64,000 nucleotides of DNA from Escherichia coli (GTDB taxonomy: Bacteria; Pseudomonadota; Gammaproteobacteria; Enterobacterales; Enterobacteriaceae): assembly GCF_003334405.1 (NCBI RefSeq), contig NZ_QOWM01000003.1; one strand, given 5' to 3'. The notes under the pieces are model-generated. The model saw only the letters and a program-made list of their open reading frames with translations. It was not told the origin of the DNA and searched no databases. Position 1 is the first letter of the stretch; the number at the start of each line of letters is the position of its first letter. A program made the position numbers and the translations under genes. Positions 85 through 64,000 of the stretch are shown here, piece by piece.

Positions 85-111
85 TTATCGGCGTAAGCGG
101 GGTAAAGTTTA
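85..111 (-). promoter_or_regulatory. sigma28 (FliA) promoter for divergent fliD operon
   Basis: Minus strand reads TAAA-N15-GCCGATAA exactly (reverse complement of + strand 85-111); fliD would lie upstream beyond the window start. Confidence 0.6.
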
Positions 112-184: not shown

Positions 185-211
185 TAAAGGTTGTGAGTGA
201 CCAGACGATAA
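185..211 (+). promoter_or_regulatory. sigma28 (FliA) class-3 promoter of fliC
   Basis: TAAA(185-188)-N15-GACGATAA(204-211), one mismatch to the sigma28 -10 consensus GCCGATAA; about 77 nt upstream of fliC ATG. Confidence 0.65.
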
Positions 212-287
212 CAGGGTTGACGGCGACGAAGCCGAAGGGTGGAAGCCCAATACTTAAACCGTAGACTTGAAAACAGGAAAATGAATT

Positions 288-1337
288 ATGGCACAAGTCA
301 TTAATACCAACAGCCTCTCGCTGATCACTCAGAACAACATCAACAAAAACCAGTCTGCGCTGTCGACTTCTATCGAGCGCCTCTCTTCTGGTCTGCGTAT
401 TAACAGCGCTAAAGATGACGCCGCGGGCCAGGCGATTGCTAACCGCTTTACTTCTAACATCAAAGGTCTGACTCAGGCCGCACGTAACGCCAACGACGGT
501 ATTTCTCTGGCGCAGACGGCTGAAGGCGCGCTGTCAGAGATTAACAACAACTTGCAGCGTATTCGTGAACTGACCGTTCAGGCCTCTACCGGCACGAACT
601 CTGATTCCGACCTGTCTTCTATTCAGGACGAAATCAAATCCCGTCTTGATGAAATTGACCGTGTATCTGGTCAGACCCAGTTCAACGGTGTGAACGTGCT
701 GTCGAAAAACGATTCGATGAAGATTCAGATTGGTGCCAATGATAACCAGACGATCAGCATTGGCTTGCAACAAATCGACAGTACCACTTTGAATCTGAAA
801 GGATTTACCGTGTCCGGCATGGCGGATTTCAGCGCGGCGAAACTGACGGCTGCTGATGGTACAGCAATTGCTGCTGCGGATGTCAAGGATGCTGGGGGTA
901 AACAAGTCAATTTACTGTCTTACACTGACACCGCGTCTAACAGTACTAAATATGCGGTCGTTGATTCTGCAACCGGTAAATACATGGAAGCCACTGTAGT
1001 CATTACCGGTACGGCGGCGGCGGTAACTGTTGGTGCAGCGGAAGTGGCGGGAGCCGCTACAGCCGATCCGTTAAAAGCACTGGATGCCGCAATCGCTAAA
1101 GTCGACAAATTCCGCTCCTCCCTCGGTGCCGTTCAAAACCGTCTGGATTCTGCGGTCACCAACCTGAACAACACCACCACCAACCTGTCTGAAGCGCAGT
1201 CCCGTATTCAGGACGCCGACTATGCGACCGAAGTGTCCAACATGTCGAAAGCGCAGATTATCCAGCAGGCGGGCAACTCCGTGCTGTCTAAAGCCAACCA
1301 GGTACCGCAGCAAGTTCTGTCTCTGTTACAAGGCTAA
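288..1337 (+). CDS. fliC: flagellin FliC, short-variable-domain allele (349 aa)
   Basis: Conserved flagellin N-terminus MAQVINTNSLSL and C-terminus VLSLLQG; RBS AGGAAA upstream; K-12 FliC is 498 aa, so this is a different H-antigen allele. Confidence 0.95.
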   Translation: MAQVINTNSLSLITQNNINKNQSALSTSIERLSSGLRINSAKDDAAGQAIANRFTSNIKGLTQAARNANDGISLAQTAEGALSEINNNLQRIRELTVQASTGTNSDSDLSSIQDEIKSRLDEIDRVSGQTQFNGVNVLSKNDSMKIQIGANDNQTISIGLQQIDSTTLNLKGFTVSGMADFSAAKLTAADGTAIAAADVKDAGGKQVNLLSYTDTASNSTKYAVVDSATGKYMEATVVITGTAAAVTVGAAEVAGAATADPLKALDAAIAKVDKFRSSLGAVQNRLDSAVTNLNNTTTNLSEAQSRIQDADYATEVSNMSKAQIIQQAGNSVLSKANQVPQQVLSLLQG

Positions 1338-1379
1338 TGGCCTTAACCTGCCTGACCCCGCTACCGGCGGGGTTTTTTC
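1170..1379 (+). ncRNA. fliX: possible FliX sRNA derived from fliC 3' end (boundaries approximate)
   Basis: Established knowledge that a sigma28-dependent sRNA is processed from the fliC 3' region ending at its terminator; only the terminator is directly visible in the sequence. Confidence 0.25.
1356..1379 (+). terminator. rho-independent terminator of fliC
   Basis: CCCCG...CGGGG stem followed by TTTTTT, about 20 nt after the fliC stop. Confidence 0.7.
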
Positions 1380-1467
1380 TGCCCGCAATTTACCGGTAAC
1401 CCCCAAATAACCCCTCATTTCACCCACTAATCGTCCGATTAAAAACCCTGCAGAAACGGATAATCAT

Positions 1468-1500: not shown

Positions 1501-2220
1501 GTGAATTCACTCTATACCGCTGAAGGTGTAATGGATAAACACTCGCTGTGGCAGCGTTATGTCCCGCTGGTGCGTCACGAAGCATTGCGCCTGCAGGTTC
1601 GACTGCCCGCGAGCGTGGAACTTGACGATCTGCTACAGGCGGGCGGCATTGGGTTACTTAATGCCGTCGAACGCTATGACGCCCTACAAGGAACGGCATT
1701 TACAACTTACGCAGTGCAGCGTATCCGTGGCGCTATGCTGGATGAACTTCGCAGCCGTGACTGGGTGCCGCGCAGCGTGCGACGCAACGCGCGTGAAGTG
1801 GCACAGGCAATAGGGCAACTGGAGCAGGAACTTGGCCGCAACGCCACGGAAACTGAGGTAGCGGAACGTTTAGGGATCGATATTGCCGATTATCGCCAAA
1901 TGTTGCTCGACACCAATAACAGCCAGCTCTTCTCCTACGATGAGTGGCGCGAAGAGCACGGCGATAGCATCGAACTGGTTACTGATGATCATCAGCGAGA
2001 AAACCCGCTACAACAACTGCTGGACAGTAATCTGCGTCAGCGGGTGATGGAAGCCATCGAAACGTTGCCGGAGCGCGAAAAACTGGTATTAACCCTCTAT
2101 TACCAGGAAGAGCTGAATCTCAAAGAGATTGGCGCGGTGCTGGAGGTCGGGGAATCGCGGGTCAGTCAGTTACACAGCCAGGCTATTAAACGGTTACGCA
2201 CTAAACTGGGTAAGTTATAA
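1501..2220 (+). CDS. fliA: flagellar sigma factor sigma28 FliA (239 aa, GTG start)
   Basis: Translation MNSLYTAEGVMDKHSLWQRYVPLV... matches FliA over full length. Confidence 0.95.
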   Translation: MNSLYTAEGVMDKHSLWQRYVPLVRHEALRLQVRLPASVELDDLLQAGGIGLLNAVERYDALQGTAFTTYAVQRIRGAMLDELRSRDWVPRSVRRNAREVAQAIGQLEQELGRNATETEVAERLGIDIADYRQMLLDTNNSQLFSYDEWREEHGDSIELVTDDHQRENPLQQLLDSNLRQRVMEAIETLPEREKLVLTLYYQEELNLKEIGAVLEVGESRVSQLHSQAIKRLRTKLGKL

Positions 2221-11021: not shown

Positions 11022-11071
11022 TCGTTTCGGTGCAATTTTCAGCAAACGATCAAAAGTGGTGAAAAATATCG

Positions 11072-11099
11072 TTGACTCATCGCGCCAGGTAAGTAGAAT
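11072..11099 (+). promoter_or_regulatory. sigma70 promoter of the glyW-cysT-leuZ tRNA operon
   Basis: TTGACT(11072-11077)-N16-TAGAAT(11094-11099) with a GC-rich discriminator, about 70 nt upstream of tRNA-Gly. Confidence 0.6.
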
Positions 11100-11172
11100 G
11101 CAACGCATCGAACGGCGGCACTGATTGCCAGACGATAATAAAATCAAGTGATTAACTGATTGCTTGATGAAT

Positions 11173-11248
<76 letters not shown>

Positions 11249-11302
11249 GTTTAAAAGACATCGGCCTCAAGCGGATGTCTGGCTGAAAGGCCTGAAGAAT
11301 TT

Positions 11303-11376
11303 GGCGCGTTAACAAAGCGGTTATGTAGCGGATTGCAAATCCGTCTAGTCCGGTTCGACTCCGGAACGCGCCTCCA
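11303..11376 (+). tRNA. cysT: tRNA-Cys (anticodon GCA)
   Basis: 74-nt sequence GGCGCGTTAACAAAGCGG...GAACGCGCCTCCA with encoded CCA. Confidence 0.95.
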
Positions 11377-11388
11377 CTTTCTTCCCGA

Positions 11389-11475
11389 GCCCGGATGGTG
11401 GAATCGGTAGACACAAGGGATTTAAAATCCCTCGGCGTTCGCGCTGTGCGGGTTCAAGTCCCGCTCCGGGTACCA
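11389..11475 (+). tRNA. leuZ: tRNA-Leu (anticodon TAA), long variable arm
   Basis: 87-nt sequence GCCCGGATGGTGGAATCGGTAGACAC...CGCTCCGGGTACCA. Confidence 0.95.
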
Positions 11476-11517
11476 TGGGAAAGATAAGAATAAAATCAAA
11501 GCAATAAGCAGTGTCGT

Positions 11518-11542
11518 GAAACCACCTTCGGGTGGTTTTTTT
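11518..11542 (+). terminator. rho-independent terminator of the tRNA operon
   Basis: ACCACC-TTCG-GGTGGT hairpin followed by TTTTTTT. Confidence 0.75.
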
Positions 11543-11670
11543 GTGCCTGCAACTTGTCGTTACACCCTCCTTAATTTTTAATCACCGGCAAAGCCACTCA
11601 AAAAGTATCTCTGATACGGACCGGCATGTAAGATAGGTGCTGGCGAGTTGAGATCCACAAGGAAAAGCGT

Positions 11671-24667: not shown

Positions 24668-25246
24668 ATGAGTGAAAAAAGCATTGTTCAGGAAGCGCGG
24701 GATATTCAGCTGGCAATGGAATTGATCACCCTGGGCGCTCGTTTGCAGATGCTGGAAAGCGAAACACAGTTAAGTCGCGGACGCCTGATAAAACTTTATA
24801 AAGAACTGCGCGGAAGCCCACCGCCGAAAGGCATGCTGCCATTCTCAACCGACTGGTTTATGACCTGGGAACAAAACGTTCATGCTTCGATGTTCTGTAA
24901 TGCATGGCAGTTTTTACTGAAAACCGGTTTGTGTAATGGCGTCGATGCGGTGATCAAAGCCTACCGTTTATACCTTGAACAGTGCCCACAAGCAGAAGAA
25001 GGACCACTGCTGGCATTAACCCGTGCCTGGACATTGGTGCGGTTTGTTGAAAGTGGATTACTGCAACTTTCCAGCTGCAACTGCTGCGGCGGCAATTTTA
25101 TTACCCACGCTCACCAGCCTGTTGGCAGCTTTGCCTGCAGCTTATGTCAACCGCCATCCCGGGCAGTAAAAAGACGTAAACTTTCCCAGAATCCTGCCGA
25201 TATTATCCCACAACTGCTGGATGAACAGAGAGTACAGGCTGTTTAA
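24668..25246 (+). CDS. flhC: flagellar master regulator FlhC (192 aa)
   Basis: Translation [27 protein letters not shown]... with C-terminal Cys-rich zinc site. Confidence 0.95.
25177..25203 (+). promoter_or_regulatory. sigma28 promoter inside the flhC 3' end (motA / MotR promoter)
   Basis: TAAA(25177-25180)-N15-GCCGATAT(25196-25203), within the last 70 nt of flhC. Confidence 0.6.
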
Positions 25247-29762: not shown

Positions 29763-29789
29763 TAAAGTTTCCCCCCTCCTTGCCGATAA
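29763..29789 (+). promoter_or_regulatory. sigma28 promoter of the tar-tap-cheRBYZ operon
   Basis: Perfect TAAA(29763-29766)-N15-GCCGATAA(29782-29789), about 30 nt upstream of the tar ATG. Confidence 0.7.
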
Positions 29790-29820: not shown

Positions 29821-31479
29821 ATGATTAACCGTATCCGCGTAGTCACGCTGTTGGTAATGGTGCTGGGGGTATTCGCACTGTTACAGCTTATTTCCGGCAG
29901 TCTGTTTTTTTCTTCCCTTCACCATAGCCAGAAGAGCTTTGTGGTTTCCAATCAATTACGGGAACAGCAGGGCGAGCTGACGTCAACCTGGGATTTAATG
30001 CTGCAAACGCGCATTAACCTGAGTCGTTCAGCGGTACGGATGATGATGGATTCCTCCAATCAACAAAGTAACGCCAAAGTTGAATTGCTCGATAGCGCCA
30101 GGAAAACATTGGCGCAGGCAGCGACGCATTATAAAAAATTCAAAAGCATGGCACCGTTACCTGAAATGGTCGCTACCAGTCGTAATATTGATGAAAAATA
30201 TAAAAACTATTACACAGCGTTAACTGAACTGATTGATTATCTAGATTATGGCAATACTGGAGCTTATTTCGCTCAGCCAACCCAGGGAATGCAAAATGCA
30301 ATGGGCGAAGCGTTTGCTCAGTACGCCCTCAGCAGTGAAAAACTGTATCGCGATATCGTCACTGACAACGCAGATGATTACCGATTTGCCCAGTGGCAAC
30401 TGGCGGTTATCGCGCTGGTGGTATTGATTCTGCTGGTGGCGTGGTACGGCATTCGCCGTATGTTGCTTACTCCGCTGGCAAAAATTATTGCTCACATTCG
30501 CGAAATCGCCGGTGGTAACCTGGCGAATACCCTGACCATTGACGGGCGCAGTGAAATGGGCGACCTGGCGCAGAGCGTTTCACATATGCAACGCTCTTTG
30601 ACTGACACCGTCACTCATGTCCGCGAAGGTTCAGATGCCATCTATGCCGGTACCCGTGAAATTGCGGCGGGCAACACCGATCTTTCCTCCCGTACTGAAC
30701 AGCAGGCATCCGCGCTGGAAGAAACTGCCGCCAGCATGGAGCAGCTCACCGCGACAGTGAAGCAAAACGCCGATAACGCCCGCCAGGCCTCGCAACTGGC
30801 GCAAAGTGCCTCCGACACCGCCCAGCACGGCGGCAAAGTGGTGGATGGCGTAGTGAAAACGATGCATGAGATCGCCGATAGTTCGAAGAAAATTGCCGAC
30901 ATTATCAGCGTTATCGACGGTATTGCCTTCCAGACTAATATCCTCGCGCTGAATGCCGCGGTTGAAGCCGCGCGTGCGGGTGAACAGGGCCGTGGTTTTG
31001 CCGTGGTGGCGGGTGAAGTGCGTAATCTTGCCAGTCGCAGCGCCCAGGCGGCAAAAGAGATCAAAGCCCTCATTGAAGACTCCGTCTCACGCGTTGATAC
31101 CGGTTCGGTGCTGGTCGAAAGCGCCGGGGAAACAATGAACAATATCGTCAATGCTGTCACTCGCGTGACTGACATTATGGGCGAGATTGCATCGGCATCG
31201 GATGAACAGAGCCGTGGCATCGATCAAGTCGCATTGGCGGTTTCGGAAATGGATCGCGTCACGCAACAGAACGCATCGCTGGTGCAGGAATCAGCTGCCG
31301 CCGCCGCTGCGCTGGAAGAACAGGCGAGTCGTTTAACGCAAGCAGTTTCCGCGTTCCGTCTGGCAGCCAGCCCACTCACCAATAAACCGCAAACACCATC
31401 CCGTCCTGCCAGTGAGCAACCACCGGCTCAGCCACGACTGCGAATTGCTGAACAAGATCCAAACTGGGAAACATTTTGA
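29821..31479 (+). CDS. tar: methyl-accepting chemotaxis protein II Tar (553 aa)
   Basis: Recognised N-terminus [21 protein letters not shown]; C-terminal NWETF pentapeptide; track ORF N-extended to 29800. Confidence 0.95.
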
Positions 31480-31524
31480 CGAGTATTTACTAACGCGGTC
31501 ATTGCCGCCTGATGGGGAGCGTTG

Positions 31525-33126
31525 ATGTTTAATCGTATTCGAATTTCGACCACGCTGTTTTTAATTTTGATTCTCTGCGGGATCTTGCAGATTGGCAGTA
31601 ACGGCATGTCTTTTTGGGCATTTCGCGACGATTTGCAACGACTGAATCAGGTCGAGCAGAGCAATCAGCAACGTGCGGCATTAGCGCAAACTCGGGCGGT
31701 AATGTTACAGGCCAGTACCGCGCTGAACAAAGCGGGCACTCTGACGGCACTTAGCTATCCGGCGGATGACATTAAAACGTTGATGACGACGGCGCGCGCC
31801 AGTCTGACGCAATCCACCACGCTGTTTAAAAGTTTTATGGCGATGACTGCGGGCAACGAGCACGTCAGGGGATTGCAAAAAGAGACGGAGAAAAGTTTTG
31901 CCCGCTGGCACAACGATCTCGAACATCAGGCGACCTGGCTTGAAAGTAATCAACTTTCGGATTTCCTCACTGCGCCGGTGCAGGGATCACAGAATGCGTT
32001 TGACGTTAACTTTGAGGCCTGGCAGCTGGAGATCAACCATGTGCTGGAAGCCGCCAGTGCGCAAAGCCAGCGTAACTATCAGATTTCGGCACTGGTGTTT
32101 ATCAGCATGATTATTGTTGCGGCGATCTACATCAGCAGTGCGCTGTGGTGGACGCGCAAGATGATTGTTCAACCACTGGCCATTATCGGTAGCCATTTTG
32201 ACAGCATTGCTGCGGGTAATCTGGCGCGTCCGATTGCGGTATATGGTCGTAATGAGATCACCGCCATTTTTGCCAGTCTGAAGACCATGCAGCAGGCTTT
32301 GCGTGGGACGGTAAGTGATGTGCGTAAGGGAAGCCAGGAGATGCACATTGGTATCGCGGAGATTGTCGCAGGCAATAACGATCTCTCAAGTCGTACCGAA
32401 CAGCAGGCGGCATCGCTGGCACAAACGGCCGCCAGTATGGAGCAATTAACCGCCACGGTAGGGCAAAACGCCGATAACGCACGACAGGCGTCGGAACTGG
32501 CAAAAAATGCCGCGACAACGGCGCAGGCGGGCGGTGTTCAGGTCAGTACCATGACTCACACCATGCAGGAGATCGCCACCAGCTCGCAAAAAATTGGCGA
32601 CATTATCAGCGTTATCGACGGAATTGCTTTCCAGACCAATATTCTGGCCCTGAATGCGGCAGTGGAAGCGGCTCGCGCCGGAGAGCAGGGGCGTGGTTTT
32701 GCGGTAGTGGCAGGTGAAGTGCGCAATCTTGCCAGCCGTAGCGCGCAGGCAGCAAAAGAGATCAAAGGGCTGATCGAAGAGTCAGTCAATCGTGTCCAGC
32801 AGGGTTCGAAACTGGTGAATAACGCCGCCGCGACCATGATCGATATTGTCAGTTCGGTGACCCGCGTGAACGACATTATGGGAGAAATTGCCTCTGCGTC
32901 GGAAGAACAACAGCGGGGGATTGAGCAGGTTGCACAGGCTGTCAGCCAGATGGATCAGGTGACTCAGCAGAACGCCTCGCTGGTAGAAGAAGCGGCGGTG
33001 GCAACGGAACAACTGGCGAATCAGGCCGACCATCTTTCGTCGCGTGTGGCGGTATTTACCCTTGAAGAACATGAAGTAGCACGACATGAGTCGGTGCAGT
33101 TACAAATTGCGCCAGTGGTATCCTGA
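31525..33126 (+). CDS. tap: methyl-accepting chemotaxis protein IV Tap (533 aa)
   Basis: Recognised N-terminus MFNRIRISTTLFLIL; track ORF begins one codon upstream at a TTG. Confidence 0.95.
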   Translation: MFNRIRISTTLFLILILCGILQIGSNGMSFWAFRDDLQRLNQVEQSNQQRAALAQTRAVMLQASTALNKAGTLTALSYPADDIKTLMTTARASLTQSTTLFKSFMAMTAGNEHVRGLQKETEKSFARWHNDLEHQATWLESNQLSDFLTAPVQGSQNAFDVNFEAWQLEINHVLEAASAQSQRNYQISALVFISMIIVAAIYISSALWWTRKMIVQPLAIIGSHFDSIAAGNLARPIAVYGRNEITAIFASLKTMQQALRGTVSDVRKGSQEMHIGIAEIVAGNNDLSSRTEQQAASLAQTAASMEQLTATVGQNADNARQASELAKNAATTAQAGGVQVSTMTHTMQEIATSSQKIGDIISVIDGIAFQTNILALNAAVEAARAGEQGRGFAVVAGEVRNLASRSAQAAKEIKGLIEESVNRVQQGSKLVNNAAATMIDIVSSVTRVNDIMGEIASASEEQQRGIEQVAQAVSQMDQVTQQNASLVEEAAVATEQLANQADHLSSRVAVFTLEEHEVARHESVQLQIAPVVS

Positions 33127-45501: not shown

Positions 45502-47931
45502 ATGACATTAACAAGACGTGAATTTATTAAACACAGCGGTATTGCCGCTGGAGCGCTGGTGGTGACATCGGCAGCACCGCTCCCCGCATGGGCAGAAGAG
45601 AAGGGCGGTAAAATCCTCACCGCGGGACGTTGGGGAGCGATGAACGTAGAAGTGAAGGACGGCAAGATTGTTTCTTCAACAGGCGCGCTGGCGAAAACCA
45701 TACCGAATTCCTTACAGTCTACGGCGGCGGATCAGGTACACACCACGGCGCGTATTCAGCATCCGATGGTGAGAAAAAGCTATCTCGATAATCCACTGCA
45801 ACCGGCGAAAGGTCGTGGCGAAGATACCTATGTACAGGTGAGCTGGGAACAGGCATTAAAACTGATTCATGAGCAACATGATCGTATTCGTAAAGCTAAC
45901 GGACCATCGGCCATTTTTGCCGGATCTTACGGCTGGCGCTCTTCTGGCGTGTTGCATAAAGCGCAAACCTTACTGCAACGTTATATGAACCTGGCGGGCG
46001 GTTATTCCGGGCATAGCGGCGATTATTCAACCGGGGCAGCACAGGTGATCATGCCGCATGTGGTCGGTTCTGTAGAGGTGTATGAACAGCAGACCTCCTG
46101 GCCGCTGATTCTGGAAAACAGCCAGGTTGTGGTGCTGTGGGGAATGAACCCGCTGAATACCTTAAAAATTGCCTGGAGCAGTACCGATGAGCAAGGGCTG
46201 GAATACTTCCATCAGCTGAAAAAATCTGGCAAACCAGTGATTGCCATTGATCCTATCCGCTCCGAAACCATCGAATTCTTTGACGATAATGCCACCTAGA
46301 TCGCGCCGAATATGGGCACCGACGTGGCACTGATGTTAGGGATTGCGCATACCCTGATGACACAAGGCAAACACGATAAAGTGTTCCTTGAAAAATACAC
46401 TACCGGGTATCCGCAGTTTGAAGAGTATCTGATAGGTAAGAGCGATAATACGCCGAAGAGCGCGGTCTGGGCGGCGGAAATTACTGGCGTACCGGAAGCG
46501 CAGATAGTCAAACTCGCTGAACTGATGGCGGCGAATCGCACAATGCTGATGGCAGGCTGGGGAATTCAGCGCCAGCAATATGGTGAACAGAAACACTGGA
46601 TGCTGGTGACGCTGGCGGCGATGTTAGGGCAGATTGGTACACCGGGCGGCGGTTTTGGTTTCTCTTATCATTACTCCAACGGTGGCAACCCGACGCGTGT
46701 TGGCGGCGTGCTGCCGGAAATGTCTGCGGCGATTGCCGGACATGCCAGCGAGGCCGCTGATGATGGCGGAATGACGGCGATTCCTGTTGCCCGTATCGTC
46801 GATGCGCTGGAAAATCCTGGCGGCAAATATCAGCATAACGGTAAAGAACAAACGTATCCGAATATCAAAATGATCTGGTGGGCGGGTGGCGGTAACTTTA
46901 CCCATCACCAGGATACTAATCGTCTGATTAAAGCATGGCAGAAACCGGAGATGATCGTCGTTTCTGAATGCTACTGGACCGCAGCAGCCAAACACGCAGA
47001 TATCGTATTACCGATCACCACATCGTTTGAGCGCAATGACTTGACGATGACCGGTGATTACAGCAACCAGCATATTGTGCCGATGAAGCAGGCTGTTGCT
47101 CCGCAATTTGAAGCGCGTAACGATTTTGACGTGTTTGCCGATCTTGCGGAATTACTCAAACCTGGCGGAAAAGAGATCTATACCGAAGGTAAAGATGAAA
47201 TGGCGTGGCTGAAATTTTTCTATGATGCCGCTCAGAAAGGTGCCCGTGCGCAACGCGTCACTATGCCAATGTTTAATGCCTTCTGGCAGCAAAATAAACT
47301 GATCGAAATGCGCCGCAGCGAGAAGAACGAACAGTACGTTCGTTATGGTGATTTCCGCGCCGATCCGGTGAAAAATGCGCTGGGTACGCCAAGCGGCAAA
47401 ATTGAAATCTATTCAAAAACGTTGGAAAAATTTGGCTATAAGGATTGCCCGGCACACCCAACCTGACTGGCTCCTGATGAATGGAAAGGTACCGCCGACG
47501 AGAAGCAGTTACAGCTTCTGACCGCACATCCGGCACACCGTTTACACAGTCAGCTTAACTATGCGGAACTGCGTAAAAAATATGCGATCGCCGATCGTGA
47601 ACCAATCACTATTCACACCGAAGATGCTGCACGCTTTGGTATTGCGAATGGCGATCTGGTGCGTGTCTGGAACAAACGTGGTCAGATTTTGACAGGCGCG
47701 GTGGTGACTGACGGGATCAAAAAAGGCGTGGTATGCGTGCATGAAGGTGCATGGCCAGATCTGGAAAATGGCTTGTGTAAAAACGGCAGTGCGAACGTGT
47801 TAACGGCGGATATCCCCAGCTCGCAGCTGGCAAATGCCTGTGCCGGTAACTCAGCGTTGGTGTATATCGAAAAATATACGGGCAATGCACCGAAGTTAAC
47901 GGCGTTTGATCAGCCAGCTGTTCAGGCGTAA
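45502..47931 (+). pseudogene. torZ: TMAO/N-oxide reductase TorZ (BisZ) interrupted by two in-frame stop codons
   Basis: Tat signal [17 protein letters not shown] at the start; three same-frame track ORFs (45484-46299, 46312-47466, 47659-47931) are collinear and total 809 codons; internal TAG at 46297-46299 and TGA at 47464-47466. Confidence 0.8.
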
Positions 47932-63291: not shown

Positions 63292-63310
63292 GCCTCTCGC
63301 GAGGAGAGGC
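63292..63310 (+). terminator. hairpin after lpxM (weak terminator candidate)
   Basis: 7-bp stem GCCTCTC/GAGAGGC directly after the stop; short U-tract only. Confidence 0.4.
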
Positions 63311-63374
63311 CTTCGCCTGATGATAAGTTCAAGTTTGCTTCAGAATATTCGAAATCTGTTGAACTATCATTGAA

Positions 63375-63414
63375 CTGTAGGCCGGATGTGGCGTTTTCGC
63401 CGCATCCGGCAACG
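63375..63414. repeat. REP element between lpxM and pykA
   Basis: CTGTAGGCCGGATGTGGCGTTTTCGCCGCATCCGGCAACG. Confidence 0.6.
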
Positions 63415-63417
63415 TAC

Positions 63418-64000
63418 TTACTCTACCGTTAAAATACGCGTGGTATTAGTAGAACCCACGGTACTCATCACGTCGCCCTGGGTGACAATCACCAGGTCAC
63501 CAGACATCAAGTAACCTTTATCGCGCAGCAGATTAACCGCTTCGCTGGCAGCTGCTACGCCGTCATTAGCGCTATCAAAGTGCACCGGCGTAACGCCACG
63601 ATAGAGAGCAGTCAGGTTCAGCGTACGTTCATGGCGCGACATGGCGAAAATTGGCAGACCAGAGCTGATACGGGAGGTCATCAGCGCGGTACGACCCGAT
63701 TCGGTCATGGTGATGATCGCCGTAACGCCTTTCAGGTGGTTAGCTGCGTACATTGCTGACATGGCAATAGCTTCTTCCACATTGTCGAACTGAACGTCCA
63801 GACGGTGTTTAGAAACGTTGATGCTCGGGATTTTTTCCGCACCCAGGCAAACGCGCGCCATGGCTGCAACGGTTTCTGACGGATACTGCCCAGCGGCAGT
63901 TTCTGCAGACAGCATCACAGCGTCAGTACCATCCAGAACGGCGTTTGCTACGTCCATGACTTCTGCACGCGTCGGCATCGGGTTAGTAATCATTGACTCC
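63418..64000 (-). CDS. pykA: pyruvate kinase II PykA, C-terminal part (5' end lies beyond the window)
   Basis: Minus-strand frame is open to the window edge; translation ...[24 protein letters not shown]...TRILTVE matches the PykA C-terminus. Confidence 0.9.

Follow-up and report, generated by a model that had tools for sequence, protein, structure and literature searches.

Prototype H4 allele of fliC, encoding a 349-aa flagellin with a compact variable domain, in Escherichia coli

The window (the whole 64-kb stretch of Escherichia coli DNA that was analyzed) opens with flagellar genes in the order fliD (divergent), fliC, fliA, and fliZ, which is the normal chromosomal position of fliC. The 5′-end of fliD, which encodes the filament cap, occupies positions 1–40 of the minus strand and is clipped by the window edge (reverse complement MASISTLGVGSGL; assigned from the annotation of the FDAARGOS_1058 genome). 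The fliC ORF extends from 288 to 1337 on the plus strand; it begins with ATG, is 1050 nt long with the stop codon included (TAA at 1335–1337), and encodes a flagellin of 349 aa. Directly downstream, a 239-aa ORF (1501–2220, plus strand) is fliA, the gene for sigma-28, as annotated in the identical region of FDAARGOS_1058. The flhDC, motAB, cheAW, tar, tap, cheRBYZ, and flhBAE genes were all found in the window as open ORFs.

From the fliC translation, a mass of 36.29 kDa and a pI of 4.95 were computed; Cys, Trp, and His are absent from the protein. Pfam domains Flagellin_N (PF00669; residues 5–141, E = 4.4e-47) and Flagellin_C (PF00700; residues 262–347, covering the full 86-position model, E = 3.3e-32) were both recognized in this intact ORF, in agreement with the first-pass annotation, which had placed a 349-aa fliC at 288–1337. 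The NCBIfam profile for the FliC/FljB family of flagellins (NF005294) was passed with 497.1 bits (cut-off 387), and the score against the longer profile NF005953 was slightly under its cut-off (610.1 and 619, respectively), as expected for a short allele. Three parts were distinguished in the protein. The conserved N-terminal part comprises residues 1–173 (288–806, plus strand; helical D0/D1 core and D1 beta-hairpin) and was delimited by Pfam, the alignment with K-12 flagellin, and the AF2 model. The compact variable (antigenic, outer) domain comprises residues 174–257 (807–1058, plus strand) and was delimited by composition, restricted DNA matches, and AF2. The conserved C-terminal part comprises residues 258–349 (1059–1334, plus strand; D1/D0 helices), on the basis of Flagellin_C and an AF2 helix at 261–348. 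Both terminal parts were near-identical to those of K-12 flagellin, and the earlier description of canonical N-terminal and C-terminal domains therefore stands. The same is true of the central region, which had been described as far shorter than that of the 498-aa K-12 protein: it consists of 84 residues vs. about 230.

The central region was also rich in Ala, Thr, and Gly, as the first-pass annotation had stated (26%, 13%, and 9.5%, respectively; sum 48.8%), whereas the sum of these residues in the two termini was 22.6% and 23.9%. Ala, Thr, and Gly together made up 36–46% of the central region in longer E. coli alleles (six or more compared). The richness is thus real yet undistinctive for the H4 allele, being typical of flagellin variable regions; H4 stands at the top of the range because of its Ala content.

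The whole window was scanned for sigma-28 sites with the consensus TAAAGTTT-N11-GCCGATAA. Five sites were found (chance expectation, 0.77), four of which precede flagellar or chemotaxis operons: fliC (185–211, plus strand; TAAAGGTT-N11-GACGATAA, two mismatches to the consensus), fliD (85–111, minus strand; one mismatch), motA (25,177–25,203, plus strand; two mismatches), and tar (29,763–29,789, plus strand; a perfect match). The scan showed class 3 flagellar promoters that appear intact across the window. The position of the class 3 promoter-like site at 185–211, together with what is known of the K-12 regulon, suggests that it would act as the promoter of fliC. A Shine-Dalgarno-like AGGA was read at 275–278 (plus strand), 9 nt before the ATG, and the terminator scan placed an intrinsic terminator after the gene, at 1354–1384 (plus strand; 9-bp stem with six G-C pairs, 3-nt loop, then a T-run). 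FliA would thus direct transcription starting from the 185–211 site and ending at 1354–1384. Because the sigma-28 site, the AGGA, the terminator, and the open flagellar and chemotaxis ORFs are all present, expression of H4 flagella is plausible. A reading of fliC as a pseudogene or truncated gene was rejected, as the ORF is intact and both promoter and terminator are present.

The size of the gene is that of a well-described allele. All fliC genes sequenced from H4 reference strains were 1050 bp long and encoded 349 aa and 36.3 kDa, whereas the K-12 H48 flagellin has 498 aa and 51.3 kDa (Beutin et al. 2005, PMC548302). In the same study, the cloned fliC-H4 was expressed and built into filaments, published H4 variants were 96.6–100% identical to one another in amino acid sequence, and a PCR/RFLP typing scheme for fliC-H4 was established, with the fragment sets listed in its Table 3 (PMC548302). 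We ran this scheme in silico on the window, with primer pairs fliC-1/fliC-2 and fliC-5/fliC-6 and enzymes HhaI, HpaII, and MboI. The predicted PCR products were 953 bp (fliC-1/fliC-2) and 1243 bp (fliC-5/fliC-6). All three digests reproduced the pattern of the prototype strain U9-41: HhaI gave fragments of 362/304/104/66/50/29/20/16/2, HpaII gave 296/240/225/159/33, and MboI gave 429/313/182/29. The HpaII and MboI patterns of the window differed from those of variants P7d and P12b. The two fliC-H4 primers described by Liu et al. 2012 (PMC3378880) matched perfectly, at 594–613 and 882–901.

Comparison with sequenced genomes gave the same answer. The full gene was 100% identical in nucleotide sequence to genomes labeled O104:H4, O25b:H4-ST131, and O2:K1:H4, and full-gene matches of at least 99% were found in 741 genomes. 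The first 25 kb of the window were 99.9% identical to genomes of O78:H4 avian strains. The central 301 nt (780–1080) were 100% identical to the O104:H4, O25b:H4-ST131, and O2:K1:H4 records, and were present in 761 of the 5,426 complete E. coli genomes, all of them H4-type matches over the full length with at least 95% identity. The first-pass annotation had proposed a non-K-12 H serotype with a length resembling that of H4, to be checked by comparing the central segment with other H types. The identity to named H4 strains and the U9-41 RFLP pattern support this proposal, and all best matches of the central segment were H4-type, none being a long allele.

Strain U9-41 (O2:K1:H4; AB028472 / BAA85081) shares with the window the 1050-bp length, 349 aa, 36.3 kDa, the PCR product sizes, and the RFLP patterns, and no difference between the two was detected, the identity being indirect, through the RFLP pattern and an O2:K1:H4 genome. 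Strains EC958 (ST131) and O104:H4 carry the same fliC-H4 allele as U9-41. The variant H4 alleles of P7d, P12b, E1541-68, and WP5-S17-ESBL-10 (WP_000079752.1) have the length and architecture of the window allele; the last differs from it at two residues, with D191 and R255 in place of G191 and G255. To judge from PMC548302 and from the lengths obtained in a full-length protein search, H4 is among the shortest E. coli alleles. Evidence of every kind gathered was free of contradiction to the fliC-H4 assignment, and the gene is almost certainly the chromosomal fliC of E. coli with the prototype H4 allele, encoding the subunit of the flagellar filament.

This is an already known gene, a textbook fliC-H4, and the assignment is correct but ordinary. 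Its value is that of a typing fact, which provides a serotype annotation of the genome and adds no new biology, as sequencing, expression, and typing of the H4 allele date back to 2005 or before. Strains of the ST131 and O104:H4 lineages, as well as many avian-pathogenic strains, belong to this H type. The IL-10 response to H4 flagella was reportedly stronger than that to flagella of types H1 and H7 (PMC4637896).

The AF2 model of the full protein was built from a 35-sequence alignment (mean pLDDT 74), and models of the central region were built from 26–35 sequences. The full model consisted of helices at residues 2–100, 106–129, and 261–348, which represent the long D0/D1 helices, a D1 beta-hairpin at 142–160 (strands 142–147 and 155–160), and four further strands within 209–252. 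The central part was predicted as a small beta-sheet domain with a mean pLDDT of 82.5 (about 80–90). According to these models, residues ~1–173 and ~258–349 would form the helical D0/D1 core, and the 84 middle residues would fold into one small beta-sheet outer domain on the filament surface, corresponding to the H4 antigen. In all enterobacterial flagellins, the D0/D1 core packs in the filament; it also contains the TLR5 epitope and is the part that the export chaperone FliS recognizes.

Among solved structures, the best match in sequence was K-12 FliC (H48, 498 aa, PDB 8cxm). K-12 FliC and H4 share a near-identical D0/D1 core (residues 1–173 and 258–349 of H4), the genomic position of the gene, and sigma-28 control; Salmonella FliC (494–495 aa, PDB 1ucu) likewise has the D0/D1 core of H4, with the same genomic position and sigma-28 control. 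The central regions of H4 and K-12, in contrast, had no sequence similarity (domain 2 was not significant), with one small beta domain in H4 compared with D2 and D3 in K-12. The outer part of H4 is accordingly modeled as a single compact domain, which would take the place of two larger domains, D2 and D3, in the flagellins of K-12 (498 aa) and Salmonella (about 495 aa). It may be called D2-like by its position, a label that carries no demonstrated kinship of fold. In Foldseek, the best whole-chain match in the PDB was 9iwq, a Salmonella FliC delta(204-292) (E = 7.5e-27, 54% identity), which has the size class and the reduced outer part of H4 but, unlike H4, is an engineered deletion that keeps the Salmonella D2. 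When the isolated central domain was used in the structure search, no significant match to solved flagellin outer domains was obtained. That the modeled compact outer domain lacks a recognizable equivalent in the solved structures is the one mildly new result of the analysis. Flagellin outer domains are very diverse, and the lack of a structural counterpart is thus unsurprising.

The full-length protein search returned a family of flagellins of 342–380 aa that align with H4 from end to end. Their hosts were Enterobacteriaceae bacterium FGI 57, Pantoea, Pluralibacter gergoviae, and Enterobacter hormaechei/asburiae, and the FGI 57 flagellin has 349 aa and is 89% identical to FliC-H4. Overall identity of these short FliC/FljB-family flagellins to H4 was 74–89%. 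The N-terminal part was 82–92.5% identical across the family, and 100% identical to that of another H4 allele (P0010), whereas the central domains, although homologous, were only 23–76% identical to that of H4. Residues V175, L209, Y212, A223, and G230 are common to H4 and the short flagellins and were invariant in the alignment. Most short flagellins of other genera have an extra loop of 4–30 residues after H4 residue 240, which H4 lacks. Searches with the central domain were less informative. Eight hits were obtained in an index of 5.8 billion proteins, namely six near-identical E. coli pieces and two sequences at 73–77% identity; none of the eight was a full-length flagellin, as the word index did not surface them. 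A phmmer search with the central domain (102 aa) against a representative library of 1.84 billion proteins gave nine hits, comprising fragments and a small number of long proteins that matched over several short stretches; flagellins in this library cluster by their conserved termini, so relatives of the central domain are beyond its resolution.

In the alignment of short flagellins, one further short E. coli protein (P0042, 351 aa), not encoded in the window, was noted. Within its central domain, the C-terminal half (GKYMEATVAITGTAAAVTVGAAEVAGAATADPL) agrees with the H4 alleles, being exactly that of P0009 and P0010; at the TVAIT position of this half, the window allele has V, whereas P0009 and P0010 have A. 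The N-terminal half of its central domain is diverged and resembles those of P0047 and P0049. Such a composition suggests that P0042 arose by intragenic recombination of H4 with a different short allele.

Two other explanations of the data were weighed against a native short allele that is expressed as H4. According to one, fliC would be the product of a recent internal deletion in a long allele, its outer domain lost or truncated, and hence a degenerate or laboratory-type variant. Such an origin could be suspected because FliC-H4 is 149 residues shorter than K-12 FliC, because its closest whole-chain structural match is an engineered, D3-deleted Salmonella FliC, and because H4 is without the loop after residue 240 that most of its relatives outside E. 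coli carry. Yet the same 1050-bp gene occurs in 761 complete genomes of varied backgrounds, several genera have relatives in its length class (one of exactly 349 aa), H4 filaments described in the literature are functional (PMC548302), and the central domain is modeled with confidence as a folded unit. Nor was any longer E. coli gene found to hold the central segment: blastn, which is more sensitive than megablast, returned the identical 761 genomes out of the 5,426 complete ones, and none of the longer alleles gave a match that was partial or interrupted. The check for an internal deletion relative to the nearest allele, which had accompanied the first-pass annotation, thus gave no sign of one in megablast, in blastn, or among the protein relatives. 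At the sensitivity of these searches, the comparisons refute a recent deletion, and we consider such an origin vanishingly improbable. The short length of FliC-H4 is instead the native, long-established architecture of its allele class. This class is old and spans several genera, because the 342–380-aa relatives align with H4 end to end and share its core residues.

The other explanation leaves the genotype intact and concerns the phenotype. Carriage of fliC-H4 does not by itself prove an H4 phenotype, as H17 strains combine fliC-H4 with flnA. A fliC-H4 carrier may thus express a different H antigen when a second locus, that is, flnA (H17), flkA, fllA, or flmA, masks fliC. All H17 strains tested had the fliC-H4 genotype (PMC548302), and in P12b, the H17 type strain, production of FlnA suppresses FliC-H4 until the encoding island is excised (PMC3378880). 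This island, of ~35 kb and with int1157, lies at the tRNA locus between pgsA and yecA (PMC3378880). In the window, the pgsA–yecA interval (11,022–11,670) is 649 bp long and contains only the genes for tRNA-Gly, tRNA-Cys, and tRNA-Leu (at 11,173–11,475), with pgsA and yecA intact; the tRNA scan and the comparison with P12b identified it as an empty flnA island site, unlike the occupied site of the P12b-type unilateral phase-variation system. A tblastn search with FliC found no second flagellin gene in the 64-kb window. Because the site is empty and no other flagellin gene is present in the 64 kb, the H17 scenario is excluded at the pgsA–yecA locus. Masking of H4 from the flkA, fllA, or flmA loci, which are located beyond the window, is conceivable in principle, but most fliC-H4 strains are phenotypically H4, and the prototype pattern was present in 86 of 88 strains reactive with H4 antiserum (PMC548302). 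Masking of fliC by a second locus is thus very unlikely, and the preferred reading remains a native short H4 allele whose expression is plausible.

The genetic background of the window was compared only with its two closest complete genomes, FDAARGOS_1058 and WP5-S17-ESBL-10 (NZ_CP065970.1 and NZ_AP022105.1). From position 1 to ~27 kb, fliC included, the window was near-identical to FDAARGOS_1058 (five mismatches and one gap); beyond ~27 kb, divergence climbed to 1–41 mismatches per kb. From ~12 kb to 64 kb, the window was near-identical to WP5-S17-ESBL-10, whereas it had ~80 differences from this genome in the stretch from 0.86 to ~11 kb, two of them in fliC (G191D and G255R in WP5-S17-ESBL-10). 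This distribution suggests a mosaic ancestry of the window, with a putative recombination patch from fliC to uvrY. Recombinational exchange around fliC is known, and the mosaic is consistent with such exchange.

Further differences from the two genomes were observed at other loci. The tar gene (aspartate chemoreceptor, about 29,822–31,479, plus strand) lacks 3 nt (one codon) at ~30,415 relative to both, and its ORF is open. The adjacent tap gene is also open (31,522–33,126, 534 aa), whereas tap of FDAARGOS_1058 (L001 33529..35130), the genome closest to the window around fliC, is annotated as a pseudogene with an internal stop. At 63,299–64,000, lpxM is followed directly by a minus-strand pyk (pykA), an arrangement shared with WP5-S17-ESBL-10; at this junction, FDAARGOS_1058 has an insertion that starts with an alpha-mannosidase gene. 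The torZ gene (trimethylamine N-oxide reductase; 45,502–47,931, plus strand) is a pseudogene because of two premature in-frame stops, W266* (TAG at 46,297) and W655* (TGA at 47,464); W266* is shared with WP5-S17-ESBL-10 (where PGAP reports an "internal stop"), and W655* was found in neither of the two genomes compared.
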